Shown here piece after piece: positions 25,420 through 44,115 of a stretch of 64,000 nucleotides of DNA. Source of the stretch: Candidatus Latescibacterota bacterium (GTDB taxonomy: Bacteria; Latescibacterota; UBA2968). The stretch's first letter is position 1. Every line of letters begins with the position of its first letter. The notes under the pieces are model-generated. The model had not been told where the DNA came from and searched no databases. It was given only the letters and a program-made list of their open reading frames with translations. The stretch is from NCBI GenBank assembly GCA_965116885.1, contig OZ220741.1, positions 2,368,001 to 2,432,000 on the forward strand, written 5' to 3'. The position numbers and the translations under genes were made by a program.

Positions 25420-25704
25420 ATGGGTAAGAAAACCAAGAAGTCCTACTCCGCTAAACTTAAGTTCCAGATCGTGTTAGAGGCATTGACCTCAGACAAAGAA
25501 GATGCAGAATTCGCGCGTGCTTACGATGTGTATCCGGTGAGTCTATCAAACTGGAAGCGTCAGTTTATAGACAACGGTGCACAGATTTTCTCTGGCAATG
25601 ATACGGTCAAAACGTATGAAGCGCGTGTGTCTGATCTGGAGCGGTTGTTAGGTCAGAAAGAAGTAGAACTGGCCTTGCTCAAAAATTTTTTAGGCAACCG
25701 TTGA
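25420..25704 (+). CDS. IS3-family transposase OrfA (HTH)
   Basis: KSYSAKLKFQIVLEAL...ARAYDV...LSNWKRQF...ELALLKNFL; RBS AGGAGG; A/T run AAAAATTTTTT at the 3' end near the OrfA/OrfB overlap. Confidence 0.85.
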   Translation: MGKKTKKSYSAKLKFQIVLEALTSDKEDAEFARAYDVYPVSLSNWKRQFIDNGAQIFSGNDTVKTYEARVSDLERLLGQKEVELALLKNFLGNR

Positions 25705-26232
25705 GCCTGTCAGACCAAGTAGAACTGGTCGAAAAGCATAAGGACAAGTATGGTCTGAATATGTGCTGCCGTGCCTTAGGCTTGTCGAAAGGGACACTTG
25801 CTTATCGTCGCGGTCGGGCCTCTTGTTCGCAGGCAGATACCCAGATAGGCGATATACTGTCTGGACCAGTTACAAAATAACTTGGCCTGTTTGGACAGGA
25901 GACTGTCTGACATCCTCATTCATCACGACCGCGATTCGGTTTATACCTCATACGACTGGTTACATCGTGTGTTGATAACAGAACAGGCAGGGATTTCTTT
26001 TGCGATGAATGGGGCAAAAGATAATCCGTGGATAGAGTCCTTTTGGGGACGTTTCAAAACCGAAAACAAAACTTTGATTATGCACGCAGACTCTTTGACA
26101 GAACTTATCTGTGTGACACAGAAGCAAATGACGTATTACAATCAAGACCGAAGGCATTCTGCTTTGAACTATCGTACGCCACAAGAAGTGGTGCAGGCTA
26201 TTCTTATGAGAAATATCACGGCTGATCCTTAG
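25701..26232 (+). pseudogene. IS3 OrfB integrase remnant with internal deletion
   Basis: N-terminal part (LSLSDQVELVEKHKDKYGLNMCCRALGLSKGT...) stops at ~25880; the C-terminal rve part (IHHDRDSVYTS, DNPWIESFWGRFKTE, YYNQDRRHSALNYRTP) is in another frame; the central region is missing. Confidence 0.8.
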
Positions 26233-26338: not shown

Positions 26339-26376
26339 AATTGCCAGCCTGTCAGGATAACGATAGGCTGGCAATT
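26339..26376. other. Strong stem-loop upstream of the TPR gene
   Basis: AATTGCCAGCCTGTC-N8-GATAGGCTGGCAATT (14/15 Watson-Crick pairs plus one G-U). Confidence 0.65.
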
Positions 26377-26409
26377 TCGAGATTTATGAGGTGTGTAAAA
26401 AATAAAAAA

Positions 26410-27384
26410 ATGAGACTTATAGCGATTCTGGTCATAGGTGTTCTATTCTTTTGCAATGCCTTAGATATTTTCTCCGCTCCAGTATCTGAGAATTCAGATT
26501 CTATCAGACCAATATTGACCAAACCATACCAGATCAAACAATTATTGAGCGACTCAGACCGGCGATTCGAGTCAGGCGACTATGAAGGCGCCATCAGTGG
26601 CTATAAAAAAGTGATTGCACTTGATTCTCTCAGTTTTCATGCGTGGTATAATCAAGGAATGGCTTCCATTGCTATTATAAACGATGAACAAGCACTTGCG
26701 TGTTTCACAAAAGCTGTGGCAATTGACCCTGAAAACGCAGCGGCACTTAATGGAAGAGGCACTGCTTATTTTAATTTGAAACTATATCAAAATGCCATCG
26801 AAGATTTTAAGAGGTGTATTGCATTGGATAGTCAACACTATGGCGCACATTATATGTTAGGCCGTGTTTGGAGCCGCCTTGAGAATTTCAAACAGGCTCT
26901 TATTAGCTATCAATTTGCCGCGAGAATAAATGCGGAACCACAAGAACTGTGGTACAATATCGGCTGCGTTCTTTCTAATCTGGGCAGATACAAAGATGCG
27001 ATTGAGCAATTTGATAAAGCCATGCACCTCAATCCCATATATGAGAAATATAAACCTGATGATATTTGGTTGGAAAAAGGCTATGCGCTGCATAAATTAA
27101 AGCAATTTGCCGAAGCTGAAATTTGCTATATAAAAGTACTTGAATTAAATGAAAATCAGGTTAATGAGAATCGAGCGACATCGTATTACAATTTGGCCTG
27201 TATTTATTCTCTCCAAAAATTATGGGAGCAGTCCTTTGCGTCGTTAAAGCAATCTTTGGAACTTGCTCCAAACTATGCTTCAGATGTTCAGAGTGACGAA
27301 GATTTGAAAGGTTTGGTCAACCATCCTATCTACAGCCTTAAAATCAAAGAGCTCGTTGCAAAACATTCTGAAGTAAAAGAATAG
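26410..27384 (+). CDS. Secreted TPR-repeat protein
   Basis: Signal peptide MRLIAILVIGVLFF; ~7 TPRs; terminal YYNLACIYSL...SDEDLKGL cap; AT-rich coding. Confidence 0.85.
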   Translation: MRLIAILVIGVLFFCNALDIFSAPVSENSDSIRPILTKPYQIKQLLSDSDRRFESGDYEGAISGYKKVIALDSLSFHAWYNQGMASIAIINDEQALACFTKAVAIDPENAAALNGRGTAYFNLKLYQNAIEDFKRCIALDSQHYGAHYMLGRVWSRLENFKQALISYQFAARINAEPQELWYNIGCVLSNLGRYKDAIEQFDKAMHLNPIYEKYKPDDIWLEKGYALHKLKQFAEAEICYIKVLELNENQVNENRATSYYNLACIYSLQKLWEQSFASLKQSLELAPNYASDVQSDEDLKGLVNHPIYSLKIKELVAKHSEVKE

Positions 27385-27394
27385 GAAGTTATTT

Positions 27395-28093
27395 TTGGGT
27401 AAAGTAATTGATTATTTAATTTTTGTGGTGATGGCAGGGTTGGCCGTAAGTATGGGGTATAGTGCGTTTTACGAGCAATTTCTCATTTTAACATCTGAGA
27501 GGCAAGTTTTTGTTACCCTGTCTTACGCGGTTATTTATGGTGGGATTTATATCGCAACGCGTCTTGTTACCAAAGATGAGCGTTTTGAAGATATGATACT
27601 TAAACCCAAAACGACATTACAGAGGGCTGTGCATGACGAGAATCATATATTTTCTATCAAGATATTCTGCATAATGGTTCTGCTATCTGGAATCTGGCTA
27701 AATGGGTGGTCAAGATATACTGATGAGTTTGATTGGGGAGGTGCTCCCTGGTTGCTATTTAGATTTCTTCTGGTGAGTTCAATAGGTTTGGGTATCTTCT
27801 GGGTATTTCTGTCCGTGTTTGTCTATGTAATTTTTCAGTTCTTCCGAGGTATCCAGTTTAGCATAATTTTCAGATTATGTGGGTATGTCTTTATTCATTT
27901 TATTGTTTTCTTTGTTTTAATTAATGCAACGCTTATTTGGCCTACGGGGGGGTATGATTTTTTAGTTGCTCTCTCTCTATTGGTGCCCGTTGATTTCTCC
28001 TGGTTGATATTATCTTTTATTTTTCTACAATTCATCTGGCCAACGGTTTTGATATTGTGGAGTCTGTTTCAACCATTTGAGCTGATTGAATAA
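27395..28093 (+). CDS. Hypothetical polytopic membrane protein
   Basis: About 6 hydrophobic segments; 10 bp downstream of the TPR gene; TTG start after AGGAAG. Confidence 0.65.
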   Translation: MGKVIDYLIFVVMAGLAVSMGYSAFYEQFLILTSERQVFVTLSYAVIYGGIYIATRLVTKDERFEDMILKPKTTLQRAVHDENHIFSIKIFCIMVLLSGIWLNGWSRYTDEFDWGGAPWLLFRFLLVSSIGLGIFWVFLSVFVYVIFQFFRGIQFSIIFRLCGYVFIHFIVFFVLINATLIWPTGGYDFLVALSLLVPVDFSWLILSFIFLQFIWPTVLILWSLFQPFELIE

Positions 28094-28186: not shown

Positions 28187-28276
28187 GTTCTAACTCTTGA
28201 TTTGATGTGAAACAAAAATTGCGATGAGTATAGACCAGATATTTCAAGAACTGAATATAAAAGGCGAATTGGTATC
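28187..28276 (+). repeat. Direct repeat copy 1: 5' UTR and first ~17 codons of the PCAT gene
   Basis: GTTCTAACTCTTGATTTGATG...ATGAGTATAGACCAGATATTTCAAGAACTGAATATAAAAGGCGAATTGGTATC, matching 36700-36787. Confidence 0.9.
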
Positions 28277-28582: not shown

Positions 28583-29248
28583 ATGGACAAGCAGAAAATT
28601 TTGATCGTAGGTCATGCAATCTATACTATGTCGGGGTTCATAAGATTCTTGATAGATGACCCTCATGAAGTATTTACTGCACCAGATGGGCGAGAAGGGC
28701 TTGAAATTTTAAGAAGAGAGCAGATAGACCTTGTCATAGCCGAAATGTATATAGAGGACGTTGATGGGATACACTTTGTGAGGTGCATATCGGCGGAGAA
28801 AATTCAGATAGATATCTTGCTCAGGGCAAGGTCTGAATTCCCGGATTTGGGCGAACAAATACCCAAGACAAGCATAAGTGTGTCCCCCATAATAAGAGAT
28901 ACATTTTTGGTGAAGGTCAAGACGTTTGTGCCTTCATACGATCTGTGGAAAACAAAATTGGAATCATTTCTGAATGAACATTACAGCAATCCAGAGCTAA
29001 AATTTGATGAACTCATGAACTATTTCCAAATCTCCAGATCATACGGTTGCAAACTGTTCAAAAAATATTTGGGCAAGCCCTTCCGTGAAGCATTGAGGGA
29101 GGTCAGAATTGGAAAGGCAAAATCACTGCTCGAAGAAACGCTATTGCCCATTTCTGAAATTGCGGAAAGCAGTGGTTTTCGTTCATCATCGCGTTTCAGA
29201 GAAGCTTTTAAAAGATTATACGGCATATCTCCTCGCGCTTACCGCTAA
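28583..29248 (+). CDS. AraC-family regulator with degenerate receiver domain
   Basis: Receiver-like N-terminus (KILIVGHA, APDGREGLEIL..EQIDLVIAEM) and AraC HTH (ISEIAESSGFRSSSRFREAFKRLYGISPRAYR). Confidence 0.85.
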   Translation: MDKQKILIVGHAIYTMSGFIRFLIDDPHEVFTAPDGREGLEILRREQIDLVIAEMYIEDVDGIHFVRCISAEKIQIDILLRARSEFPDLGEQIPKTSISVSPIIRDTFLVKVKTFVPSYDLWKTKLESFLNEHYSNPELKFDELMNYFQISRSYGCKLFKKYLGKPFREALREVRIGKAKSLLEETLLPISEIAESSGFRSSSRFREAFKRLYGISPRAYR

Positions 29249-29302
29249 AAAATGGATGAGACGATAAGTTAAGCTTTGATCATCCAGGTTGAGGGCAATA
29301 TA

Positions 29303-31813
29303 ATGGCGATCCCAAAACGAATCGTTTTCTATAGCCAGCACTTAATCGGTGTGGGACATCATTTTCGCAATCGGGAAATTGTTCGCGCGCTGGCTCAGAA
29401 TCATCAGGTCTATTTTGTAGATGGAGGTCGCCAAATTCCCGGAGGCGATTTGCCAGACTCGGTTGAGCGCATCCAGCTATTACCTGTTTTTGCTTCTAAG
29501 GAGGGACTATCTTCGGATGAATTAGGCCGAGATATTCAGGAGGTTCTTCGTGAACGCTGTGATGTATTGTGTAAAGCAATCGAGAACATTGATCCAGATA
29601 TATTTATGATCGAGTTTTTTCCTTTTGGCCGTGGGAGATTGCGTTCAGAGTTGATTTTGGCGATTGAGTCCGCCCGGTCAACCAACCCGGATGTGAAAGT
29701 GATTTGTTCATTGCGGGATATCCCGATGCGAGCCAAAACTGCTGACCTCATTGGACCACCGATGCCCGATGCGTTGGCTATCACGGGCAAATTGCGATTT
29801 TATTCGGTGCCGTTTGGCGGACCACAGTATGTCCACACCCTGATGGCGCAGCGGTATTATAACGAGGTCTGCCCGACTTTGAACACGCATTTTGATGTGT
29901 TGCTCGTTCACGGAGATCCGAAAGTAACGCGACTGGAGGAGCATTTTCCCTGGGTAGAGGATATTGAGATTCCCATTGAATATACAGGATATGTGTCAGA
30001 AAAATTAAAGCCACAACGTCTGAAGAATGGATTGCCCAAACGCTTTGTCCTTGTCAGTACAGGGGGTGGGGCTGAGGCTTATGAGTTGATTGTTCCGTGC
30101 ATAGAAGCTTGGAAACTGTTGTTGAAACAGGGGGCAACGCAGGGCAGGGAAATGGCGATTTTTACAGGTCCTTTTGTCCATGATGATCAATTTGAATCCT
30201 TAAAACAAATGTGTGACGATGGTCCATTCCGGCTCTCGCGCTTTGTGCCTGATTTTCTATCGTGGATGAATGCGGCGGATTTTTCAATTAGTCGGGCTGG
30301 CTACAATACGTGTATGAATGTGCTTGAAACAGGCACACCCACCTTGCTGGTTCCAAGTGTACCCATGGGCGACCAGGTATTCCGAGCAGAGAAACTATCT
30401 GAACTGGGACTTGCTGATGTGATTGCCAGCGAAGACCTGAGTCCGGATAGTGTTGCCGATGTTATTATAAAGGGTATATCTCGACCTCCAGCAAGCCATG
30501 ATATTGCGCTTGATGGTGCAAATAAGACGCTTGAGTTTGTTTCTAAACTATCTACACGCAGTCGAAAGATGGTCTGTATGGATTTCGATTTTAAGATCAA
30601 GGATGAGATGAAAATTTGCATGATTGCCCATCAGTACCCACCTGTGTCGGGTGGAGTCGGTGTTGCTACCCAACGAATTGCTCGGAATCTGGCACGTTGC
30701 GGTGTTTCTGTCCATGTAATCGCTCCTGGATCCCATCGGGTTGGCGAAGCTATTTCTGTTGCGCGTGAGGATGGTGTAGAGGTTCATCGGATGTATCTCG
30801 CCCTGGCGCATTATTACGGAGAACAACGGGAGTTACAGAATATTGGCACTTATGTTGTCCAATTACATAAAAAAGAACATTTTGACATCGTACATGGTTT
30901 GTTTCTGAGTCCTGCAGGATTGGTAGCTGCAAATGTGTCCGCAGAAATAGACAGACCTTTCGTGGCGAGTATTCGAGGGAATGATTGGGAAACCATGCGA
31001 TACAGTCCTTTGTTGGCGGCTTCTTCCAGATGGGTGCTTGAGCGTGCGGACATGGTGACGTCTGTTTCTTCTGCCTTGCTTGAAAAAGCCCAGAAGATCG
31101 TTCATATTACGCATGGAAAAGTTATTCCCAATGCGTTTGATTTTTCGCTTTTTGACCATCGCCCGCTTAAAGAGATTGGTTCTCAACAAGTCGGGCAATT
31201 CTTGAAGGTTAAAGGAATAGATAGATTGGTCGTTGGCACGGTGGCTATGATTCGGCACAAAAAAGGCCATCGCATTTTATTTGAAGCTTTTAGGGTTCTC
31301 CTTGAAAAGTGTTCAGATGCCATCCTCTTAATGGTTGGAGATTATCACAGTGAACAAGACCGGATGGCTTTTACTCAGCAGATTGAAGAATTGGGCCTGG
31401 AGGATAGGCTGTTTATCACTGGAGAAGTGCCGCATACACACGTACTTGCCTGGTTGAAAGAGATGGACATTTTTGCCTATCCTTCGCTTTATGAAGGATC
31501 ACCAAATGCTCTTTTGGAAGCAATGGCGTGTGGCCTACCCATAGTGGGGTCACAAGTCGATGGCATAAGTGATTTGATTACAGACGGAAAGAATGGGCTT
31601 CTCATCCCGGCAGGATGTGTGGATAGGCTTTCAGAGACTCTCATTCTGCTGGCAAAAGATCAGGAACTGAGAGATCAATTGGGGTCAGCAGCACAGCAGA
31701 TGATTGAGCAAGAGTTGATGCCGGTGCATGAGGCGAAAATCTGGGTGGATACGTACAATCTGGCTATAGCCTGCCATCAAGAACAGGTAGGTAGGGCCGC
31801 TGGTGTTGGTTGA
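29303..31813 (+). CDS. Fused glycosyltransferase: COG4671/GT28-C-like domain + GT4 domain
   Basis: N-half: YSQHLIGVGH, IEFFPFGR, SLRDI, VSTGGG, SRAGYNT. C-half from 30608: MKICMIAHQYPP..GG, PSLYEGSPNALLEAMACG. Confidence 0.9.
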   Translation: MAIPKRIVFYSQHLIGVGHHFRNREIVRALAQNHQVYFVDGGRQIPGGDLPDSVERIQLLPVFASKEGLSSDELGRDIQEVLRERCDVLCKAIENIDPDIFMIEFFPFGRGRLRSELILAIESARSTNPDVKVICSLRDIPMRAKTADLIGPPMPDALAITGKLRFYSVPFGGPQYVHTLMAQRYYNEVCPTLNTHFDVLLVHGDPKVTRLEEHFPWVEDIEIPIEYTGYVSEKLKPQRLKNGLPKRFVLVSTGGGAEAYELIVPCIEAWKLLLKQGATQGREMAIFTGPFVHDDQFESLKQMCDDGPFRLSRFVPDFLSWMNAADFSISRAGYNTCMNVLETGTPTLLVPSVPMGDQVFRAEKLSELGLADVIASEDLSPDSVADVIIKGISRPPASHDIALDGANKTLEFVSKLSTRSRKMVCMDFDFKIKDEMKICMIAHQYPPVSGGVGVATQRIARNLARCGVSVHVIAPGSHRVGEAISVAREDGVEVHRMYLALAHYYGEQRELQNIGTYVVQLHKKEHFDIVHGLFLSPAGLVAANVSAEIDRPFVASIRGNDWETMRYSPLLAASSRWVLERADMVTSVSSALLEKAQKIVHITHGKVIPNAFDFSLFDHRPLKEIGSQQVGQFLKVKGIDRLVVGTVAMIRHKKGHRILFEAFRVLLEKCSDAILLMVGDYHSEQDRMAFTQQIEELGLEDRLFITGEVPHTHVLAWLKEMDIFAYPSLYEGSPNALLEAMACGLPIVGSQVDGISDLITDGKNGLLIPAGCVDRLSETLILLAKDQELRDQLGSAAQQMIEQELMPVHEAKIWVDTYNLAIACHQEQVGRAAGVG

Positions 31814-31827
31814 GGAGGAAGGCTATT

Positions 31828-33231
31828 GTGAAAATCTATATTCCACATCCTTATCGAACGAGTGAAGAGATGTACACAGCAGACAGCGGTGCCGCACTCT
31901 CAGGTTTTAATCATACACGAGCTTTAGCCAGGTACTGCGAAGTGTATATGCCAGCACAAGAATCTCAGCAATATGAGGAGAATATCTACGGGATTCCGCA
32001 GACATTTGAGACCATAGGTTCTTCGTTGGCCTGGTTTGAGCAGCAATCGTTTGATGCAGTGGTCATGTTTGAACCGAATGTAGATGATCTGGTGTTTTTT
32101 CGGCATGTTTGTCCGGCACCGATTATAATTCGTTTGTCGTGCTGTTTTGGCCGTAACCGCGAATTTTTGAACAAAGTGCTGAACTGTTATTCCCTATTGC
32201 GCCCTTACGATGCCTTGTCCCCCAAGTCTCAATGGTGTGCTGAGGAACTGAGCAAGTATGTGTTTGATGCTTCATATCTCAAGCCGATTACGAATGGAGT
32301 GGATTTAGAGACGTTCAAGCCTTCAGACAAGCTGAACGCGAAAAAGCGACTTGCCGAGGTGACAGGAGACAATCGCTTTGTAGAGATGCCCGTTGTGGGA
32401 CTTTGTTCGCGGTTTGAACCGGGAAAAGGAGCATATCCGTTTTTACGTGCGGCAGATCTCAATCCCAATGTGCTTTTCGCTGTTATCGGCAAGCAGTTTG
32501 CACCCGTGACACATCCCGTAAATGTGGCCTTTCTTGGTTCCCAGCCCTATACCCAGATGCCACTGTTTTACAATGCGCTGGATGTGCTGTGTGCTTTGTC
32601 GGTATATTCTTATGAGTCCTGTCCTTCGGTTGTGCTGGAGGGCATGGCCTGCGGCCTCCCGATTGTTGCAACTCAATTTGCCGGTGCGCCTGAGTTGCTG
32701 GATGATTGTGGTCGATTGATAGAGATTGACCGATTCGAGAACGAGCCACTGAATGTCACGGGATATATCGAGCCAGAGATGGTCTCTGAATCGATTTGCG
32801 AGTTATTGAGCAGCAAAACTGAACGATTGAAATTGGGATGTAGAGCACGGAAAAGGGCAGAAAGTTTTTCCTGGGATAACATCGCCAATCAGCATGTGAG
32901 TCTGATTGAAAATTTATTGAACAAGCGCGATCAACCTGCTTGTTCGGTTCCACTGACAGTACATTTTTCACAAACTTGTGACTCTGAGGGCGATATCAAG
33001 AGTATTCCGAGGGCATTTAATTTTTTTGGAAGACAACAAGGCCCACTACCGCGCATTTCTTTTTTGGGGCAGGATATGACTTTTCTCGAGGGATTTGGGC
33101 TTTATCTGAGCCAGATGCTTCATCCAAACGAAGTCGAAGCAGCGATGATCGGCGTGTGTGGTGATGGCGACACCGCATATAAGGTGCTTCGCAAAATTCG
33201 ACAATTTAACGATATGCTGACAGCACCTTGA
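31828..33231 (+). CDS. GT4-family glycosyltransferase with ~95-aa C-terminal extension
   Basis: NGVDLETF, RFEPGKG, YESCPSVVLEGMACGLP, FSWD; GTG start after AGGAGG. Confidence 0.88.
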   Translation: MKIYIPHPYRTSEEMYTADSGAALSGFNHTRALARYCEVYMPAQESQQYEENIYGIPQTFETIGSSLAWFEQQSFDAVVMFEPNVDDLVFFRHVCPAPIIIRLSCCFGRNREFLNKVLNCYSLLRPYDALSPKSQWCAEELSKYVFDASYLKPITNGVDLETFKPSDKLNAKKRLAEVTGDNRFVEMPVVGLCSRFEPGKGAYPFLRAADLNPNVLFAVIGKQFAPVTHPVNVAFLGSQPYTQMPLFYNALDVLCALSVYSYESCPSVVLEGMACGLPIVATQFAGAPELLDDCGRLIEIDRFENEPLNVTGYIEPEMVSESICELLSSKTERLKLGCRARKRAESFSWDNIANQHVSLIENLLNKRDQPACSVPLTVHFSQTCDSEGDIKSIPRAFNFFGRQQGPLPRISFLGQDMTFLEGFGLYLSQMLHPNEVEAAMIGVCGDGDTAYKVLRKIRQFNDMLTAP

Positions 33232-33324
33232 AAACGCCTTATTTTGGGAAGGAGGTGGTTTTGAGCAAAGAGCCGTGTTGTAATACACAATGTCGTAGTT
33301 CACTGTAAACTGAAAGGAGTAAAG

Positions 33325-33735
33325 ATGTCGATCAATTTGAAGAAGCGAATGACAACAGGTCCCAAGACTGCATTTGTTTCTTGTGTGAATCTCCCTCAGC
33401 AGGAAAGAGATATTACCATGCAAGAGGCAAGGATGATTACTGGTGGTAATACTGACATCGTCGGAGACGAGTATAGAAAGCGCGGCTGGACTCCTCCGCC
33501 TACTATGAATGGCGGAGGGGTTACCCCAAGAGGTGGGGGAGGTAGAGGGAGAGGAACAGGTGGTGTCAAAGCTATTGGTAAACTAGTCAAGTCTTTGACT
33601 TCGAGTTCAGGAGGTTCAGGAGGTTCAGGAGGTTCAGGAGGTTCAGGAGGTGAAGCTACATCCGAGACGTTTGATGATCCTCACAATAGCGAATTGGGCT
33701 ACGATGTAGTTAATGGGCGGCGGGTTTACCATTAA
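33325..33735 (+). CDS. Double-glycine leader precursor peptide (candidate RiPP/PCAT substrate)
   Basis: Strong RBS AAAGGAG; leader ends DITMQEARMITGG, matching LSxxELxxIxGG; 95-aa Gly/Ser/Thr-rich core; lies upstream of a C39-PCAT. Confidence 0.85.
   Translation: MSINLKKRMTTGPKTAFVSCVNLPQQERDITMQEARMITGGNTDIVGDEYRKRGWTPPPTMNGGGVTPRGGGGRGRGTGGVKAIGKLVKSLTSSSGGSGGSGGSGGSGGEATSETFDDPHNSELGYDVVNGRRVYH
33606..33650 (+). repeat. Perfect 9-bp tandem repeat (TTCAGGAGG)x5 encoding (Ser-Gly-Gly)x5
   Basis: Read directly from the sequence. Confidence 0.95.
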
Positions 33736-33878
33736 CTTCGTTGTAAATACAAGTACTGAAAAATGCTAAAAGCAGATAGTGAACCATAGACCTGCCGGGA
33801 TAACCAAGGTTCAAAGGGTTTGACAGTTCCAGAATATTCGAGGACTTCCAAAACGTTTTTGGTAAATCTCAATGGATT

Positions 33879-33919
33879 ATATTGTAGGCTTTGAATTAGA
33901 CTTTCAAGGCCTACAATAT
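33879..33919. other. Long stem-loop between precursor and M16 genes
   Basis: ATATTGTAGGCTTTGAA-N7-TTCAAGGCCTACAATAT (16/17 Watson-Crick pairs plus one G-U). Confidence 0.7.
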
Positions 33920-33937
33920 TTACAGGTTTATAGGCAT

Positions 33938-35314
33938 ATGAATTCCTTATATCAAACACGCAAGTTTTTCTGTATAGCAGCATTCGTGTTATTTCTATAT
34001 GCGCCAACATTTGGGCAAAATAATAGCACAGGGAGTTTGACAAAGTACGAATTAATAAAAAAAAGAAATTTAACTGATGGATTGGAAGTTGCCGAATATA
34101 GACTTAAAAATGGACTTCGGGTTGTGATTGTCAAAGATACTACAGAACCGATTTTCGCTTATCAGACATTTTTTCGAGTAGGATCGGTGCATGAACCCCC
34201 AGGTCGTCAGGGTATCGCACATTTTTTAGAGCATCTTATGTTTCGAACACGAATAGATACTTCTACAATTAGCGATCTTTCCAAAATGGTCAAACTAAAA
34301 GGCGGAAGAGATTTTAATGCTGGAACGTCAAGAGATGGAACAGTATTTCATGTTCTTCTTCCAAAAGATCAACTCGAATTTATTATAGAAATCGAATCGC
34401 GTCGTATGGCAGACCTGAGTATTTCACCTGAAATGTATATCAACGAAAAAGAGGCTATTCTCACTGAAAAATCTACTGAGAATGCAGATCCTATCAATTA
34501 TTTGTGGAATGCGATATACAGATCGCTATATACTGTCCACAACTATCGAAATTCGGTTATAGGAGAAGCAGAAACAATCGAGAACGTGACATTAGATGAC
34601 ATAATGGATTTTCATAGAATTTTTTTTAAACCCAACAATGCGTTGATTGTTGTCGCTGGTGATTTTGTTCCTGAAGACGTCATTGAGTTGATTGACAAAT
34701 ACTATGGTCATATACCGACTGGAAAAAAAATAAAAGGCTATAAAATATTGGAACCAAAACCTGAACAAGACCGAATTTTGACATTGATGCATCCTAAGAC
34801 CCAATTATATACTATATCAAATATATGTCGGCTGCCGGATATTGAAGAACGAGATCGCATTGTGCTTTCTATATTCGCCCACCTCATGGAATTGACACTA
34901 AAAGCCCAATTGGAAAATGCATCTATCGTTACAATACGGGTTTCGCCTCGGGTACATGCGTATGACTATTTCTTTATTTTTGTTCTTCAGTCAACCGAGA
35001 AAATAGAAGTAAAAAAGATACAAAACACCCTTGATCAGATATTCGATTTTTTTCGAGATGATGTTAATGAAACACTGCTCAAGGTTGCGATAGAAGAATA
35101 TAGACAAAGCCTGTACTTTATTTATTCCCAACAACAGGAATTGGCAAAATTATTAGGCGAAAGTTATCTAAAAACTGGCGATCCCCTTTCGGGTATTGAT
35201 GTTTTGAATGCCATTGATCAAGTGGGCGTTGAAAATATAAAAAGGGTTGTAAAACAATACTTTTACAATCAGCCGATGCATACGACTTTGCTATCTCCTG
35301 ACGATTTTGAGTAG
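33938..35314 (+). CDS. M16 (pitrilysin/M16B) zinc peptidase, catalytic subunit, with signal peptide
   Basis: LKNGLRV, VGSVHE..GIAHFLEHLMF (HxxEH), FNAGTS, PNNALIVVAGD; hydrophobic N-terminus. Start may be 33872. Confidence 0.9.
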   Translation: MNSLYQTRKFFCIAAFVLFLYAPTFGQNNSTGSLTKYELIKKRNLTDGLEVAEYRLKNGLRVVIVKDTTEPIFAYQTFFRVGSVHEPPGRQGIAHFLEHLMFRTRIDTSTISDLSKMVKLKGGRDFNAGTSRDGTVFHVLLPKDQLEFIIEIESRRMADLSISPEMYINEKEAILTEKSTENADPINYLWNAIYRSLYTVHNYRNSVIGEAETIENVTLDDIMDFHRIFFKPNNALIVVAGDFVPEDVIELIDKYYGHIPTGKKIKGYKILEPKPEQDRILTLMHPKTQLYTISNICRLPDIEERDRIVLSIFAHLMELTLKAQLENASIVTIRVSPRVHAYDYFFIFVLQSTEKIEVKKIQNTLDQIFDFFRDDVNETLLKVAIEEYRQSLYFIYSQQQELAKLLGESYLKTGDPLSGIDVLNAIDQVGVENIKRVVKQYFYNQPMHTTLLSPDDFE

Positions 35315-35325
35315 AGGAATAGAAA

Positions 35326-36663
35326 ATGGTGTATTCGAGCAGGTTTCGATTTCTCAGTGGAATTGTAGTTTCAATTTTCCTGTTTGTGTGTTGTCAACCA
35401 GAACCGAGTAGCATAACGCAAAAGTTATATTATCAGAATGATAAACGTGTCCCGATGACGTATATCAATCTGATTATACGAGATATAAGGCAAAAAGATA
35501 AATTGAAGGACTTAGTTTCGATCCTATTGTTTGATTATCCCAACAAAGTTGTCGAAGAAATCCTCCTGCAAGGATTTGTCTCAGGCGCAAGGTGGGAGTC
35601 TTTAACGAGTCCAGATGTTTTTGAAATCAGAATATCAACCCCGAGCAAGCATCTTCGTCAAGTTCTTTCAGATACGCACAAAATCCTATATGAAACAGAT
35701 TTTTCGATAATTGACATTGAATTGGCTAAAGCGCAGCTATATCACAAGCAGAAGAAAGATATTCAGGAAAATTTTTTCAATGCAGTCGTTTGGTATGGTC
35801 TCAAAAAGAGTACGGATTTTCTGGGATTGACGCCCTTATCGGAGTTGGAAGGAATTACAGGACGGGATGTGCAGCATTGCTATGAACAAATGCTCGCTTC
35901 GCCCTTTTATTTTTCAGTGATTTCGGATCTTCCCAGAGGAGAGGTCGAAAGTGCCTTAGCGATCTTCGCAAAAAATACCCAACTCGAAGAAATGGAGCGC
36001 AATACTGGGGGATCGACTTGGGAGTTGTCGGGCAGACAGGTTTTGATCGTCAATACGCCTGGCACTGATATTGATGAGTGTTATTGGATATTGAAAGGTC
36101 TTGATCGTCGAGATCCAGATTATTTGGTACTTCGGGTTATTGTCGATGCAATTGGGGGAGATTTTGATAGTCTTTTATATGAAGTTTTACGTGAAGAAAA
36201 AGGCTTATGTTATGCAGCGAATGCTGCCATTGAGAATTGGTTGAAGCCTGGTTATATCAGCTTTTATGCCAATCCTAGAACGGAAAATACAGCGAAATTA
36301 GTCCATGAGCTTTTTTTGCTCATAGACGATTTCAGTAAAGAGAAACGTTTTTGGCAAAAAATAGAAGATAGTAAAATAAAATTAAAATATCAGTATGTTT
36401 ACACACAAATGCTTGAAGAAAAACTCAATAGACAAATTCAACGCGATTTATACGGTGTCCCTTTATTAGAACAAGAGGATTTCGAAAAGAAAATAGATGA
36501 GATAGACGAGGAACGAGTACGAAAAGTTTTAGCAAAGGTTTTTTCTACGCAAAATATTTTTATGATTTTTGTTGGAAATGCAGATCGTTTAAGCAAAATT
36601 GCAAATCAAGTTATAGAAGAAAAAAAAGTAGAAATATTCAATCGCGCGTTTTTTGATTGGTAA
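35326..36663 (+). CDS. M16 peptidase non-catalytic partner subunit, probable lipoprotein
   Basis: No HxxEH; carries the R/Y motif SLLYEVLREEKGLCY; N-terminal IFLFVCC signal. Confidence 0.8.
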   Translation: MVYSSRFRFLSGIVVSIFLFVCCQPEPSSITQKLYYQNDKRVPMTYINLIIRDIRQKDKLKDLVSILLFDYPNKVVEEILLQGFVSGARWESLTSPDVFEIRISTPSKHLRQVLSDTHKILYETDFSIIDIELAKAQLYHKQKKDIQENFFNAVVWYGLKKSTDFLGLTPLSELEGITGRDVQHCYEQMLASPFYFSVISDLPRGEVESALAIFAKNTQLEEMERNTGGSTWELSGRQVLIVNTPGTDIDECYWILKGLDRRDPDYLVLRVIVDAIGGDFDSLLYEVLREEKGLCYAANAAIENWLKPGYISFYANPRTENTAKLVHELFLLIDDFSKEKRFWQKIEDSKIKLKYQYVYTQMLEEKLNRQIQRDLYGVPLLEQEDFEKKIDEIDEERVRKVLAKVFSTQNIFMIFVGNADRLSKIANQVIEEKKVEIFNRAFFDW

Positions 36664-36699
36664 CAGGTGTTACACAATTTACAGGAATGGACTTGAGCT

Positions 36700-36787
36700 G
36701 TTCTAACTTTTGATTGGATGCTAAAAAAAGTGTGATGAATATAGACCAGATATTTCAAGAACTGAATATAAAAGGCGAATTGGTATC
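36700..36787 (+). repeat. Direct repeat copy 2 (true PCAT 5' end)
   Basis: Matches 28187-28276. Confidence 0.9.
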
Positions 36788-39728
36788 GTTTGACCTGGGA
36801 ACAGTGGTTTTTAATCAGGGCCAATCTGATGATGGCTTGTATGTCGTCAAGTCGGGCCGCTTGCGAGTGTTGAAAGAGGATGAGGAAGGACAGTCAGAGA
36901 CGTTAGGGTATCTGTATGAAGGCGATCATTTCGGTGAGGGGGCGTTGTTGACAAGCAAGGGGCATCGGGCGACGGTGCGAGCAGCCGAAGATTCTGAAGT
37001 GCTTCGCATCAAGCCTGAAGATTTTCAAAGAGTAATAAAAAATGACCCAGAACTCAAAACGTACTTTGAAGATCAGATCGCGCATATTGCGTATCGGGAC
37101 TTTACGCGGTTTTTGAAGGGGGGAAGCGATCAGGTGTCCGCAGAGGCAATGCAGCACCTGTTCGGTAATCTAAAACGACAGGTGTATCAATCAAGCGAAA
37201 CGGTAGTTAAACGTGGCGATATGGGGAGCGGACTTTATCTGGTCGGTGGAGGCGAATTGGAGGCGGTTGGGCAGGATAGTGAAACAATAGTTCTAAATCC
37301 GGGCGATTTTTTTGGCGATCAGGCATTGATAGATGGCATCGTGGAACCCTTTACGGTAAGTGCCCAAAATTATTGTGTTCTGTTTCAATTAGATAAAAGT
37401 GATTTTTATGAAGTTATAGCTTCGATTCCAGCGTTGGAATCGGGACTCGAAGCCGGGCGTTGTGTTCAAAAAGTGGAAGCAGAAGACGATGAGCCACAGG
37501 TGGAATCGACAAATGGAACTCCCGACAATGTGCATCTGCTTGATCACGCGCCTGAAGCAGGTCGTCCACCCCGATCTTTCCAATTTCCATTTTTGAAACA
37601 GCACGATCAGTCGGATTGTGGCGCAGCGTGTTTGGGCATGATTTGTAAGTATTACAAGATGCCGATTGGATTGAACAGACTGCGCGATATGTCCAATGTG
37701 TCGCGGTCTGGCACGTCAATGGCCGCGCTGGCCGAAGCAGCAGAGACATTGGGGTTTCTGACGCGGGGCGTGCGAACGGGATATGAGAAACTGATGCATA
37801 CGGAATTGCCAGCCATTTTGCACTGGAAAGGCAATCACTTTGTGGTGTTGTTCAAAACCGCAAAAGACCAGGTGAGAATTGCCGATCCTGCAGTGGGGGT
37901 TCGCAAGTTATCTCGCAAGGAATTTGAGGCCGAGTGGACCGGTGTGGCTTTGCTCATAGAATACACAGATCAAGTTGCCGAAAATGAGCCTTCTCGCACG
38001 ACTTTTCGCCGTTTTATACCGTATGTCAGACCGTATGTTCGCAGTTTGTGTGAGATTTTTCTGGCCTCGTTGGTGATGAGTCTTTTTGGGTTGGCGTCAC
38101 CACTTTTTACTCAGACGATAGTGGATCAGGTGCTGGTACATCACGATCGGGATTTATTGAATTTGATGCTTGCAGGGATGGTTGTCATCGCATTGTTCCA
38201 GATGCTTGTTTCATCCCTGCGGACGTATCTGGTCACTTATATGAGTACGCGGTTGAGTATGACGCTACTCTCCCGGTTTTACCAGCATTTGTTATCGTTG
38301 CCGATGCGGTTTTTCGCGTTGCGAAAGACGGGTGACTTGACAACGCGTTTTGGGGAAAATGCCACGATTCAAGCTTTGCTGACCGGCACGGTTGTTTCGC
38401 TCATTCTCGATGTGATTGTACTGTTTGTCTATCTGAGTTTGATGGTCTATTACCATCTCCAATTGACACTGGTGGTTCTGGCTTTTATTCCGCTTTCTAT
38501 TGTTTTGACACTGGTCTATACACCTATTCTCAAATCTCTCAGTCAGCGCGCATTTCTCGCACGGGCTGAGCAGTCATCCGTACTGATTGATTCATTGCGC
38601 GGGATTGATACGGTTAAGACACTGGCTATAGAGCGTTCCACGCGGTGGCGATGGGAAGAGCGTTATATGAAATCGATTCAGATAGGGTTTTCGGGTATGA
38701 AGATCGGGCTGTTATTCGGGTCAGCAGGTGGGCTGATGAACCTTTTCAGTAGCACGTTTATTTTATGGTACGGCGCGACATTGGTGATGGATGGCGAGCT
38801 TTCTGTGGGGCAGTTGATGGCTTTTAATTCACTGATTGGCAATGTAACCGGGCCGATTATGGGGCTGATTGGACTGTGGCCGCAGGTGCAGGAGGCGCGG
38901 ATTGCGCTGGATCGGTTAAATGATGTGTACGAAACGCCGATGGAGACATCGCGTCAAGGTGCTTATGGTATTGTGCTTTCGGGTGTTGAGGGTCGCATTG
39001 TATTTGAAAAGGTGTTTTTCCGATACGGTTCGGGTTCTGATGAGCCTTATGTGTTGAGCGATATTAGTTTGACGACAGAACCCGGACAAAAGGTGGCTAT
39101 TGTGGGGCGCAGCGGAGCGGGTAAAACAACGCTGGTGAAGTTGATCCCCCGATTTTTTGACCCCACGGAAGGGCGTGTGACCATAGATGGAATGGATGTG
39201 CGGGACTTTGATCCGGGCTGGTTGCGGCAGCAGGTCGGCATGATTTTACAGGAGTCGGTGCTTTTCAGTGGTACTATAGCCGAGAATATCGCGCTGGGGC
39301 AGGAGGATGTGGATATGGATCGGGTTCTGGAAGTGGCGCGGTTGGCGTGCGTACACGAATTTGTCGGTGACATGCCTCTGGGATACGAGACAAAGGTGGG
39401 AGAGCAGGGCATGGGGCTTTCAGGGGGACAGCAGCAACGCATTGCAATAGCCCGTGCGCTGTATCACGATCCAAAAATCCTGATTTTTGACGAGGCGACC
39501 AATGCTCTGGATACGGAATCAGAACAGGCGATTCAGGAGAATCTGGAGATTATTTTGAAAGATCGGACAGCTTATGTAATCGCGCATCGGTTGAGTACGG
39601 TGCAAAATGCCGATTGGATTGTGGTGCTGGATAAGGGGCATGTGATTGAGCAAGGCACACACGGTGAGTTGATGGACAAGCAGGGATTGTATCATCATCT
39701 TTTGGGACAGCAGTTGCAGGGTGTATGA
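36735..39728 (+). CDS. Peptidase-containing ABC transporter (2x cNMP-binding + C39 + ABC membrane + ATPase)
   Basis: cNMP domains (GDHFGEGALL; GDFFGDQALI); C39 QHDQSDCGAACL, HWKGNHFVVL, IADPA; Walker A GRSGAGKT, LSGGQQQR, ILIFDEAT, IAHRLST. Confidence 0.95.
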   Translation: MNIDQIFQELNIKGELVSFDLGTVVFNQGQSDDGLYVVKSGRLRVLKEDEEGQSETLGYLYEGDHFGEGALLTSKGHRATVRAAEDSEVLRIKPEDFQRVIKNDPELKTYFEDQIAHIAYRDFTRFLKGGSDQVSAEAMQHLFGNLKRQVYQSSETVVKRGDMGSGLYLVGGGELEAVGQDSETIVLNPGDFFGDQALIDGIVEPFTVSAQNYCVLFQLDKSDFYEVIASIPALESGLEAGRCVQKVEAEDDEPQVESTNGTPDNVHLLDHAPEAGRPPRSFQFPFLKQHDQSDCGAACLGMICKYYKMPIGLNRLRDMSNVSRSGTSMAALAEAAETLGFLTRGVRTGYEKLMHTELPAILHWKGNHFVVLFKTAKDQVRIADPAVGVRKLSRKEFEAEWTGVALLIEYTDQVAENEPSRTTFRRFIPYVRPYVRSLCEIFLASLVMSLFGLASPLFTQTIVDQVLVHHDRDLLNLMLAGMVVIALFQMLVSSLRTYLVTYMSTRLSMTLLSRFYQHLLSLPMRFFALRKTGDLTTRFGENATIQALLTGTVVSLILDVIVLFVYLSLMVYYHLQLTLVVLAFIPLSIVLTLVYTPILKSLSQRAFLARAEQSSVLIDSLRGIDTVKTLAIERSTRWRWEERYMKSIQIGFSGMKIGLLFGSAGGLMNLFSSTFILWYGATLVMDGELSVGQLMAFNSLIGNVTGPIMGLIGLWPQVQEARIALDRLNDVYETPMETSRQGAYGIVLSGVEGRIVFEKVFFRYGSGSDEPYVLSDISLTTEPGQKVAIVGRSGAGKTTLVKLIPRFFDPTEGRVTIDGMDVRDFDPGWLRQQVGMILQESVLFSGTIAENIALGQEDVDMDRVLEVARLACVHEFVGDMPLGYETKVGEQGMGLSGGQQQRIAIARALYHDPKILIFDEATNALDTESEQAIQENLEIILKDRTAYVIAHRLSTVQNADWIVVLDKGHVIEQGTHGELMDKQGLYHHLLGQQLQGV

Positions 39729-39731
39729 TTT

Positions 39732-41453
39732 ATGGCTGAATCATCGGCAGTATCGGATAGGACGCAGTCGGTTTTACAGGCTGTGAGCCAATCATCGCAA
39801 GCATCGGAGCAGCCCGCGTCAGAGGTCACGGAGTTTTTCGGTTCCTTGCGCCCTGCGATTAGCCAGACATTGTTGTACATTATTCTGCTTTTTGTGGCAG
39901 TTGCCATTGCCTGGGCGTGGTGGGGCAAAGTCGATGTGGTTGCATCTGCGCCATTTCGACTGGTGCCTTTGGGGAAGGTGAAAACCGTACAGGCAGCACG
40001 CGCTGGCGAGATTGAGCTTATTGGGGTCAAGGCAGGAGATCGGGTTAAAAAGAGACAGGTGTTATTCAAGTTGCGCTCGTGGGAAACATGGCATGAATTG
40101 CGCGAGCTTGAGCAGGCGAAAATTACACTTCAAAAGGCGAAATACGATTTGGAAGTGGCATTGCCCCGGAAACAGGCGTTGACAACGGAGACGGTGGTAG
40201 CATTAAAAGAGCGGGTGCAACTCGCGCAGATGTTTGTTGCGACGCATCGGGATGTATTGGATGCGTATCAAACGGAGATGGGTGCGCAGAATGCGCGAAG
40301 TGTCAGTGGGAAAGACGCAGATTTGAAGGCGCGCATCAATTTGCGTCAGGCGGAAGTTGCACATATCAAAGCGCAGTATGAACGCCAAAAGGCGTTGTTT
40401 GACCGCGGTTTGATCAGCCAGGCAGATATGGAAAGGGCGCGGATGGCATATCTCAATGCGCTGGCGCAATTGCCAGGCCGGATGTCCGAAATTTATCAGC
40501 AAGAAATGGCGGTTCAGGATATCAAGCGTCAGATTCTGGAAGCCGAGCTATCGCAAGACCGCGAAGCATCTCAGGCAAAATACGCTTATGACGCTGCCCG
40601 CTTGCGCCTACAACAGGCGCAACAGAAGGTGGCACGAAACTTAGATGCAGAATCAGATCTCATTCTGGCACCAGAAGCCGGAATCGTGACGCAGGTGCTG
40701 GTGAATACAGAAAGACAGGTGATCAGCAAGGGACAATCGCTGGCTATGATCGCACCGGAGACTGCGCCAATCGTGGCCGAGGTGATGATTTTGAACAAGG
40801 ATGTGGGGTTGATGAAACCCGGTCAGGTTGTGAGGTTGAAGTACGATGCCTTTGCATTTCAGGATTACGGCATTAAAAGGGGCTGGCTATCCGAGATTGC
40901 TCCGGATGCCTGGCTTGATCAACATGGCCTCACGTTATTTGACGTGGCTGTAGAGGCTGAATATCGGTTGTATCAACGCTGGTTGATGTCGCGGATTAAA
41001 GAGGATAGCATCCGGGCTTTTTTTGTTCAGCGTACCCTAAGTTTTGAGCGCGTGGAGGTGTGCTGGATTTCTGTATCAGATGAGGGCGTGGCTGAAGAAT
41101 TGTGTTTACAAGTCAAAGAAGAAGGTGCGGATTTTTATACCCTGGCACGGCGGTATTCGCAAGATGAAGCCACGCGGTCTGCTGGCGGGTATCTTGGACG
41201 GCGGCGCAGGCGCAATCTTCCACAAGGGGTCGCGCCTTTGATTTTTGCCGCATCGGAAGGCGATGTTGTTGGTCCCGTGAAAGTGGAAAAGGGTTATGCG
41301 TTGTATTATGTGCAGAAACGATGTCCAGCGGTACTCGATGAGACCACTTGTGAAAAGATCCGGAGAAAGCTGTTTGAATCCTATTTACAACGCGAAATGA
41401 AACGCGCTGAGATCACTTTTCCGTTTAATGTAAGAAGGCTGACTCTGGAATGA
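39732..41453 (+). CDS. HlyD-family membrane fusion protein fused to a parvulin (PpiC-type) peptidyl-prolyl isomerase domain
   Basis: TM + KVDVVASA, coiled coil, ILAPEAGIV, KPGQVVRLKYDAFAFQDYG; from ~40910 the sequence switches to ADFYTLARRYSQDEATRSAGGYLG...GDVVGPV. Confidence 0.85.
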   Translation: MAESSAVSDRTQSVLQAVSQSSQASEQPASEVTEFFGSLRPAISQTLLYIILLFVAVAIAWAWWGKVDVVASAPFRLVPLGKVKTVQAARAGEIELIGVKAGDRVKKRQVLFKLRSWETWHELRELEQAKITLQKAKYDLEVALPRKQALTTETVVALKERVQLAQMFVATHRDVLDAYQTEMGAQNARSVSGKDADLKARINLRQAEVAHIKAQYERQKALFDRGLISQADMERARMAYLNALAQLPGRMSEIYQQEMAVQDIKRQILEAELSQDREASQAKYAYDAARLRLQQAQQKVARNLDAESDLILAPEAGIVTQVLVNTERQVISKGQSLAMIAPETAPIVAEVMILNKDVGLMKPGQVVRLKYDAFAFQDYGIKRGWLSEIAPDAWLDQHGLTLFDVAVEAEYRLYQRWLMSRIKEDSIRAFFVQRTLSFERVEVCWISVSDEGVAEELCLQVKEEGADFYTLARRYSQDEATRSAGGYLGRRRRRNLPQGVAPLIFAASEGDVVGPVKVEKGYALYYVQKRCPAVLDETTCEKIRRKLFESYLQREMKRAEITFPFNVRRLTLE

Positions 41454-44108: not shown

Positions 44109-44115
44109 TGCGCCC

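Follow-up and report, generated by a model that had tools for sequence, protein, structure and literature searches.

The glycosylated bacteriocins described to date are made by GT2 glycosyltransferases (GTs) acting on disulfide-stapled cores. In the glycocins (sublancin, glycocin F, pallidocin and enterocin F4-9 type) a double-glycine (GG)-type leader and a cluster-encoded GT are combined with export and cleavage by a C39 ATP-binding cassette (ABC) transporter; the GT2 enzyme has a GT-A fold (SunS/GccA-like) and the sugar is S- or O-linked to loop or tail residues of a short core. Here we analyze a gene cassette within 64,000 nt of genomic DNA (the window in the following), which represents one copy of a cassette family in sponge-associated Candidatus Latescibacterota. 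Based on comparative sequence analysis we consider it moderately probable that this family produces GG bacteriocin-like peptides, which are O-glycosylated by GT-B enzymes at the motif [DE]-x-x-S-[DE].

The cassette genes were read as open reading frames (ORFs) and annotated by Pfam and NCBIfam scans. In contrast to the glycocins, the cassette encodes GT-B enzymes (GT4 and GT1/28-like), and neither a Glycos_transf_2 domain nor a thioredoxin/DsbA-type protein was matched. The short disulfide-bonded core of the glycocins is replaced by hypervariable, often Cys-free cores of 25–115 aa with a linear acidic Ser motif, and the transporter carries additional cyclic nucleotide (cNMP)-binding domains and has a rotamase partner. 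The remaining glycocin features, GG leader and C39 transporter, are present: the peptidase-containing ABC transporter (PCAT) matches Peptidase_C39 with 3.5e-40 (Pfam), and the Cys, His and Asp required for catalysis are shared by all 14 transporters of alignment A5 (columns C12, H85 and D101), which predicts cleavage of the leader.

Further parallels exist for the enzymes and for the precursor repertoire. The GT4 O-GlcNAc transferases of Gram-positive adhesins (SdgA/SdgB and GtfA type) would resemble the enzymes proposed here in being retaining GT4 enzymes that transfer an N-acetylhexosamine (HexNAc) to Ser residues in acidic surroundings. The substrates of SdgA/SdgB are Ser-Asp repeats, and these transferases act on large repeat proteins secreted by Sec, whereas leader peptides exported via a PCAT are at hand here. 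The SdgA model NF047880 reached 34.3 bits (cutoff 800) in one GT4 domain of the cassette and did not match the second GT4 enzyme. With prochlorosins (ProcM type) the cassette shares a conserved leader, many unrelated cores per genome and a single set of tailoring enzymes; the modification is lanthionine formation there and proposed to be glycosylation here, with a core motif apparently recognized besides the leader.

The export half is known from cyanobacteria. According to the main text of Wang et al. 2011 (PMC3140520; see also PMC4558948), bacteriocin groups I, II and VI comprise a long ABC transporter (CAP_ED/cNMP and C39 domains), HlyD, a SurA-type rotamase and nearby GG precursors, and group II additionally contains M16 peptidases (PMC3140520). 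The export half of the window equals this group I and group II layout domain for domain (Pfam), while the string 'glycosyl' does not occur in the main text of that article (PMC3140520). Unlike the cyanobacterial clusters as described there, the present family belongs to another phylum, HlyD and rotamase are fused in the window, and the leaders match no NHLP or Nif11 model: the precursor hit 0 NCBIfam families. The transporter and adaptor stayed below the cutoffs of this system, TIGR03796 scoring 578.5 (cutoff 853.3) and TIGR03794 30.1 (cutoff 156.2). The PpiC-related putative peptide maturation system TIGR04500 likewise stayed below its cutoff (63.5 vs 180 bits). The same cNMP-C39-ABC layout is found in HetC of Nostoc, whose N-terminal domain is described as binding ppGpp in vitro and as required for differentiation (PMC10986499). 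The original prediction, which had recognized no described family in this architecture, thus holds for the link between GT-B enzymes and GG precursors and does not hold for the export half. Literature searches, supplements aside, brought up no account of GG-leader cassettes linked to GT-B enzymes; the GT-to-precursor link is the new part, the export half being already known.

Leaders, cores and GT-B enzymes of the cassette

The co-oriented, AT-richer cluster of regulator, GT fusion, GT4, precursor, M16 pair, PCAT and HlyD/peptidyl-prolyl isomerase that had been proposed for this locus was found in full, with all genes on the + strand (ORF list, Pfam). Equally confirmed were the Cys-free 95-aa core and the lack of LanM, YcaO, radical SAM, GT2 and thiol-disulfide family matches among the cassette ORFs (Pfam, NCBIfam).

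The precursor is encoded by a 136-aa ORF (33325..33735, +) with the Shine-Dalgarno sequence AAGGAG 6 nt upstream. Its leader (residues 1–41, 33325..33447) ends in 'ITGG' at residues 38–41, and the Gly-rich core of 95 aa after G41 (33448..33735) contains 0 Cys. In 18 database relatives the first 41 residues are nearly invariant, following the consensus MSINLKKRMTTGPxTAFVSCxNLPxQERDIxxQEARMIxGG, and the remaining sequence is unrelated between members (alignment A1). By this pattern the ORF is a genuine precursor, beyond what chance would produce. In the broader leader alignment A2 every sequence has L23 and G40, and almost all have R8. Double-glycine leaders usually have hydrophobic residues at −4, −7 and −12 and Glu at −8, and the C-terminal half of the leader conforms to this pattern.

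Two loci from named records place the precursor family in Candidatus Latescibacterota. A first precursor search matched 16 out of 168 genomes of the phylum, and alignment A2 matched 41, among them all 20 genomes of the window's genus and all 15 of a second genus, g10. With an iterated leader hidden Markov model (HMM) 132 precursors were obtained in 57 of 63 loci examined; wherever the locus includes a transporter, these lie upstream of it on the cassette strand. Searching 1.84 billion representatives with the leader profile gave 182 matches at E<=0.001, many of which are BspA-type leucine-rich repeat (LRR) proteins that align to the N-terminal half of the leader only. Leader residues ~8–24 (33346-33396), [VM]-T-[ST]-x4-A-F-x2-C-x2-L-P, resemble one BspA-type repeat unit (VTSIGDYAFAGCTSLTSVTIP), and long LRR_5 proteins (P0066, P0085, P0086, P0103, P0119, P0130) align to the leader profile in 5–14 stretches each. 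The resemblance may be due to chance, convergence or exaptation.

The cores are hypervariable and fall into at least 30 clusters of 25–115 aa, including acidic cores ending in SEWWASW, Gly/Ala-rich hydrophobic cores, poly-Cys-tailed cores and Gly-rich cores as in the window. Six loci (L068, L084, L097, L103, L105, L106) have cores ending in a run of Cys, namely CCCCCCCDD in genomes bearing the GTs and CCSCSCKK or SCCCKK in genomes lacking them; these tails might conceivably serve metal binding or lipidation. In the window four tandem 9-nt units (GTTCAGGAG) at 33605-33651 encode (SGG)n directly before the Ser motif described below, and since the number of SGG units varies among relatives, the length of this spacer is variable.

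Upstream of the precursor the window encodes an 845-aa GT fusion (29276..31813, +) and a 473-aa GT4, designated GT4b (31810..33231, +), which directly precedes the precursor gene. The fusion consists of an N-terminal GT-B domain of the GT1/GT28 type (GTN; Glyco_tran_28_C, residues ~1–440, 29276..30595) and a C-terminal GT4 domain (GT4a; Glyco_transf_4 and Glycos_transf_1, 30596..31813), the latter being the domain that was hit by the SdgA model. Fetched loci were compared by tblastn of the window's proteins, unveiling the recurring order [regulator] – [GT4a] – GTN – GT4b – 1–6 precursors – membrane-protein genes – cNMP-C39-ABC – HlyD – PpiC, and three full cassettes were located in the window's genome (the window itself, 3.010–3.019 Mb and 4.281–4.293 Mb). 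All 33 full-length GT4b homologues in Latescibacterota genomes are followed on the same strand by 1–6 leader peptides, within 600 nt in 32 cases and at 618 nt in one. Among 20 loci fetched via GTN alone, 16 contain PCAT-HlyD-PpiC downstream; of the remaining four, three run into a contig end and one shows a different context. This synteny strongly supports a functional link of the GTs with GG-leader precursor and PCAT. It is the opposite of the scenario that had been named as speaking against such a system, i.e. GT homologues occurring elsewhere only in polysaccharide loci with neither precursor nor PCAT. A co-variation of GT4b with the leader type was considered as well and dropped, one GT4b serving 2–6 leader types in other cassettes; the loci L073–75 combine a GT4b of 55% identity with a divergent leader.

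GT4b has ~45 database clusters at >=50% identity, after which the next match falls to 29%; it is, judged by this distribution, a dedicated and lineage-restricted enzyme. Its residues E269, E277, R201 and K206 are invariant columns, the two Glu residues being those of the EX7E motif. An EX7E motif is also contained in GT4a, whose best NCBIfam match is BshA (122 bits, below the cutoff). GT4a is optional: the three GT-B domains that had been predicted are indeed present in the window, and they are not general, the extra GT4 occurring in ~19 of the 33 cassettes.

GTN shows weak sequence matches in the PDB to YjiC (5e-4), OleD and MurG and was found in 26 of the 168 genomes of the phylum and at six places in the window's genome (tblastn). 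Two of these paralogues lie in other peptide-export-like clusters, at 1.834–1.848 Mb (L192) and 5.476–5.488 Mb (L193). One of the two clusters comprises an AraC fragment, GTN, HlyD, a TPR/C39-like protein, an ABC transporter and an S8 peptidase; the other comprises a response regulator-AraC protein, TPR, an 84-aa Gly-rich peptide, ABC transporters, redoxin and Yip1, and furthermore S8-DUF1611, an acyl carrier protein, GTN and MauE/DoxX. In the window's genus GTN may serve peptide systems more generally. The sole GTN context of this genome that resembles glycan synthesis is L194 (1.456–1.466 Mb), where an 876-aa GT4-GTN fusion of reversed domain order adjoins another GT4 and two ORFs that look, by eye, like a UDP-GlcNAc 2-epimerase and a UDP-sugar dehydrogenase; a leader peptide is absent there.

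Serine motif in genomes with and without the glycosyltransferases

All 400 dipeptides were scanned without bias across the first core set, which comprises 30 clusters, against composition-preserving shuffles. The most enriched dipeptide was 'SE', observed in 21 clusters vs 7.7 expected (z 6.3). The extended motif [DE]-x-x-S-[DE] occurs in 20 of the 30 clusters vs 2.5 expected, a number reached by 0 of 1000 shuffles, and T[ED] was depleted (3 observed vs 11.1 expected in the same 30 clusters). In the window the candidate O-glycosylation sequon is E110-A-T-S113-E114 (33652..33666, +) with the Ser113 codon at 33661..33663, and beyond the leader, where few columns of A1 are nearly invariant, S113 is one of them. 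With respect to the original prediction of an O-glycosylated, Ser/Thr-rich peptide, Ser is retained as the best reading of the acceptor, and in place of a general Ser/Thr richness the target appears to be one short sequon in which Thr is disfavoured.

For comparison, the genus g10 provides cassettes of the same type in which the GT-B genes are missing. Leader peptides were found in all 15 g10 genomes, GTN in none of them (E<=1e-10) and GT4b in none (E<=1e-20); the g10 loci consist of 2–4 precursors, ~2–5 kb of membrane-protein genes and PCAT-HlyD-PpiC. Among unique cores, the motif [DE]-x-x-S-[DE] is present in 63 of the 76 that stem from GT-bearing genomes vs 1 of 53 from GT-lacking ones, 49 of these 53 having been fetched after the motif was defined. 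Five core families are common to both groups, and in each of them the Ser is replaced or lost where the GTs are lacking. Thus, DYISEEFG aligns with NLVAEIFG, FVSEV with TVAEL, WYGDRVSEG with WYGDRIMDG or WYYDRAKDA, and WDWGDFASE with WDWGD--AL, while the C-terminal GDTVSEWWASW of the fifth family has no counterpart at all, the tail being absent. Judged from these alignments, the weight of the motif contrast lies in the parallel replacement across about five paralogous core families.

Several observations weigh against glycosylation of this Ser, the support for a glycan being entirely comparative. The sole GT-lacking core with the motif belongs to the locus L107, from a genome of 82% completeness in which no GT was found. 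Conversely, 13 of the 76 cores from GT-bearing genomes do not contain the strict motif; most of these retain the Ser with a non-acidic residue at +1, and [DE]..S occurs in 74 of 76. Both g11 cassettes have GTs and show the variant E-x-Y-S-G only, and the precursors of L092 carry the motif with no GT4b in their cassette. Furthermore, on a quick tree of the transporter C39 and transmembrane domain (TMD) region, GT absence corresponds to two changes only, the g10 clade (15 rows, Shimodaira–Hasegawa-like approximate likelihood ratio support 100) and G042, which retains a GT4b remnant; the ratio of 63/76 to 1/53 consequently overstates independence. Since all three main clades contain cassettes with the GTs, the simpler reading is that g10 lost them. 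Finally, GtrA-like, TMEM260-like and GT2 genes adjoin g10 cassettes, so that 'GT-lacking' denotes merely cassettes without GT-B enzymes of their own. These genes are located on the opposite strand, at a distance of 0.5–1 kb from the precursors (L099, L103, L106 and other g10 loci), the TMEM260-like gene resembling GT-C protein O-mannosyltransferases. Orthologues of the three (69–71%) are found at 5.18 Mb in the window's genome, where no cassette is near, and 5 of the 15 g10 cassette loci examined have no TMEM260-like gene or a truncated one; they are probably mere neighbours and not a replacement glycosylation system.

The leader differs between both groups as well, as a post hoc comparison of 76 GT-bearing with 48 GT-lacking leaders revealed. 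R8 is present in 76/76 vs 27/48, T/S10 in 48/76 vs 2/48 and S/T11 in 75/76 vs 37/48, so that R8, T10 and S/T11 follow the GT state and the acceptor could lie in the leader. The GTs would then glycosylate Thr10 and Ser/Thr11 of R-x-T-[ST], or dock there, and the sugar would be shed with the leader as a transient tag for export or self-protection. We regard this explanation as quite improbable: the contrast in the core motif (63/76 vs 1/53) is much sharper, S/T11 is kept in 77% of the GT-lacking leaders, and the comparison was made post hoc. It is, moreover, compatible with an acceptor in the core, since docking on the leader combined with an acceptor in the core is the usual logic of RiPPs (peptides made on the ribosome and modified after translation). 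R-x-T-[ST] may thus serve as GT docking site or as a second acceptor. Leader Cys20 was considered as a site of S-glycosylation and rejected, its frequency being about equal with GTs (59/76) and without (32/48).

A further objection to a peptide acceptor arises from the predicted structure of GT4b. The AlphaFold2 model (mean predicted local distance difference test score, pLDDT, 88.6) comprises a GT-B core (1–374) and an extra domain (383–471) made of a beta-hairpin and three helices. As a whole it resembles MshA (E 1e-19), GlgM, sucrose-phosphate synthase, HepE, BshA and PimA, so that the closest solved relatives are retaining GT4 enzymes acting on small molecules, not peptides. For the extra domain, which was modelled alone with a pLDDT of 74, Foldseek and VIA returned no recognizable peptide-binding fold. 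A RiPP recognition element (RRE) of the PqqD-like type would be a winged helix with three strands and three helices, similar to RREs of solved structure; Foldseek gave no match of the domain at E<=0.001, and the best VIA hit (Z 6.8) was to generic helical segments. A prediction of the complex of GT4b with the precursor yielded a median of 0.29 vs a mark of 0.32 and, having been run without controls, is not evidence either way.

These structural data agree with a different role of the GTs, namely the synthesis of a glycolipid, an envelope glycan or a small glycoside that is co-regulated with export, e.g. as a surface change protecting the producer, the Ser motif being kept for the activity of the peptide. 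The nearest structures (MshA, BshA, GlgM, PimA, HepE) indeed use small-molecule, lipid or glycan acceptors, and one GTN copy lies in a sugar-nucleotide/GT cluster (loc4) that has no leader peptides. Such a role leaves unexplained why, in five core families, replacement of the Ser coincides exactly with the lack of the GTs and why GT4b stands beside a precursor in 33 of 33 cases, and no relatives of GT4b above 29% identity were found outside these cassettes. We therefore judge it unlikely and retain O-glycosylation of the core Ser as the preferred reading.

Proposed pathway and its implications

The proposed pathway starts from the precursor with its conserved 41-aa leader and hypervariable core. 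The precursor would be glycosylated in the cytoplasm on the Ser of [DE]-x-x-S-[DE], here Ser113 in E-A-T-S-E, with GT4b, the cassette-specific retaining GT4, as the initiating enzyme; further sugars would be added by the GT1/28-like GT and, where present, by the second GT4. A UDP-GlcNAc 2-epimerase gene (PF02350, 1.6e-105) at the end of one paralogous cassette, at 4.29 Mb, hints at a UDP-HexNAc as possible donor. As expected from family knowledge, the cNMP-regulated C39-ABC transporter (1004 aa; two cNMP_binding, Peptidase_C39, ABC_membrane and ABC_tran domains; 36714..39728, +; Pfam, NCBIfam) would cleave after GG and export the core through HlyD, and the PpiC/SurA-like domain would act in the periplasm. 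Both latter functions reside in one protein in the window, an HlyD-type periplasmic adaptor fused to a PpiC/SurA-type rotamase (HlyD_3, Rotamase; TIGR01843 and, weakly, TIGR04500; 39732..41453, +); in most related cassettes they are encoded by separate genes.

Membrane proteins would protect the producer. In most cassettes CPBP/Rce1-like (PF02517) and DUF3267 'zincin' membrane proteins are encoded between precursors and PCAT, families that often serve as bacteriocin immunity proteins. In cassettes of the window type (L001) a TPR protein, a membrane protein of ~230 aa and a 195-aa protein follow the precursor instead, and the 232-aa multi-pass membrane protein of the window (27395..28093, +), which matches no family (Pfam, NCBIfam), is the candidate for this function.

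Instead of killing, the peptides might serve in signalling or development, with a PCAT gated by nucleotides as their exporter, a role that has been proposed for HetC in Nostoc, and with glycosylation tuning stability or receptor recognition. The transporter shows the HetC-type order of cNMP, C39 and ABC domains, the N-terminal domain of HetC being the one described as binding ppGpp in vitro (PMC10986499), and response-regulator/AraC genes flank many cassettes. The precursor repertoire fits this function poorly: each cassette contains 1–6 hypervariable precursors alongside CPBP/Rce1-like and DUF3267 genes, many cores are Gly/Ala-rich and hydrophobic, or acidic, and loci with orphan precursors and remnants occur (L002, L066, L067). 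Hypervariable precursors, adjoining membrane genes, cores of this kind and orphan loci are typical of diversifying bacteriocin/immunity loci. A signalling function appears rather unlikely to us, and a bacteriocin-like peptide remains the preferred product.

The exporter and M16 parts of the system are ordinary, and there is a fair chance that it qualifies as a new enzyme-defined class of ribosomal glycopeptides. In its full form this proposal, which we give about an even chance, states that a cytoplasmic GT-B pair (a dedicated GT4 and a GT1/28-like enzyme) recognizes an acidic Ser sequon of five residues that is portable, perhaps in combination with R-x-T-[ST], and decorates many unrelated GG cores per genome before PCAT export, that once the GTs had been lost the Ser gave way in all core families, and that the sequon is a transferable bacterial O-glycosylation tag for peptides. 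If true, the known routes to ribosomal glycopeptides would be extended by a GT-B system that reads a short linear sequon in otherwise unrelated peptides, and this could supply a simple tag-plus-enzyme pair for glycoengineering, with the GT-lacking sister genus g10 as a ready control set. The Latescibacterota, an uncharacterized phylum, have been flagged as biosynthetically rich (PMC9426513), and for a gene family that recurs in their uncultured, sponge-associated members the cassette suggests, for the first time, a concrete product.

Accessory peptidases and rearrangement of the window locus

Between precursor and PCAT the window contains two M16 genes on the + strand, an active subunit with the HxxEH motif (HFLEH; 33872..35314) and a non-catalytic partner with a Peptidase_M16_C domain only (35326..36663). 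Contigs of two other runs (X3 and X13, ~93–95% alike) show the same precursor-M16-PCAT junction. No M16 homologue was detected by tblastn in the other 62 loci, so that the pair, which had been listed among the genes of the system and considered for trimming of the product, was rejected as a conserved tailoring step; as seen from these searches it is an accessory of this cassette. Trimming of the long Gly-rich core by the M16 pair is conceivable as a speculative additional step.

The cluster had been taken to begin at 28583, with the regulator. This gene encodes a response-regulator receiver (Response_reg) fused to HTH_18/AraC (28505/28583..29248, +; Pfam), its true start being likely the ATG at 28583, and paralogues of it adjoin other cassettes. 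The AT-richer stretch as such was confirmed (GC 0.37–0.52 over 25–42 kb vs 0.53–0.585 in the left flank); it does not begin at the regulator and starts at ~25 kb with IS3-family transposase fragments (HTH_Tnp_1, rve_3; 25420..26232, +), taking in a TPR gene (26341..27384, +; Pfam) and the gene of the 232-aa membrane protein. The window contains 0 tRNAs, and no tRNA or attachment site was found at the island edges.

In the related loci L001, L002, L057 and L058 homologues of the TPR protein (81–91%) directly follow the precursor and are themselves followed by homologues of the 232-aa membrane protein (79–81%). In the window the M16 pair sits in this place, and the TPR and membrane genes are found upstream instead (26341-28093). 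A copy of 63 nt from the 5' end of the PCAT gene (28214..28276, +; direct repeat D1) is 95% identical to 36725-36787, and a similar PCAT 5' remnant exists in L002. Since the 63-nt repeat and the IS3 fragments bound the TPR and membrane genes, these are probably the tail of an older, truncated cassette, and the 63-nt copy looks like the scar of a rearrangement that parted them from the transporter. A contig joint in run X3 (33377 to 26279) corresponds to the L001-type order in another strain.

Near-identical DNA was found in runs labelled sponge metagenome. Scanning metagenomes with the transporter C39 and TMD region gave 80 loci, three of them near relatives; the distant PCATs had neither GT nor leader, and two of them had M16. 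Contigs from one RNA library, 90–97% alike, span parts of the regulator, GT4b, both M16 genes, PCAT and HlyD; they were not used as evidence of transcription, DNA carry-over being possible and the contigs giving no expression level. On the right side the cassette adjoins two paralogous TPR proteins of 868 and 802 aa on the − strand (41502-46524), the second with a weak match to the GWxTD domain, which lie in DNA of normal GC content and are probably unrelated to the cassette.

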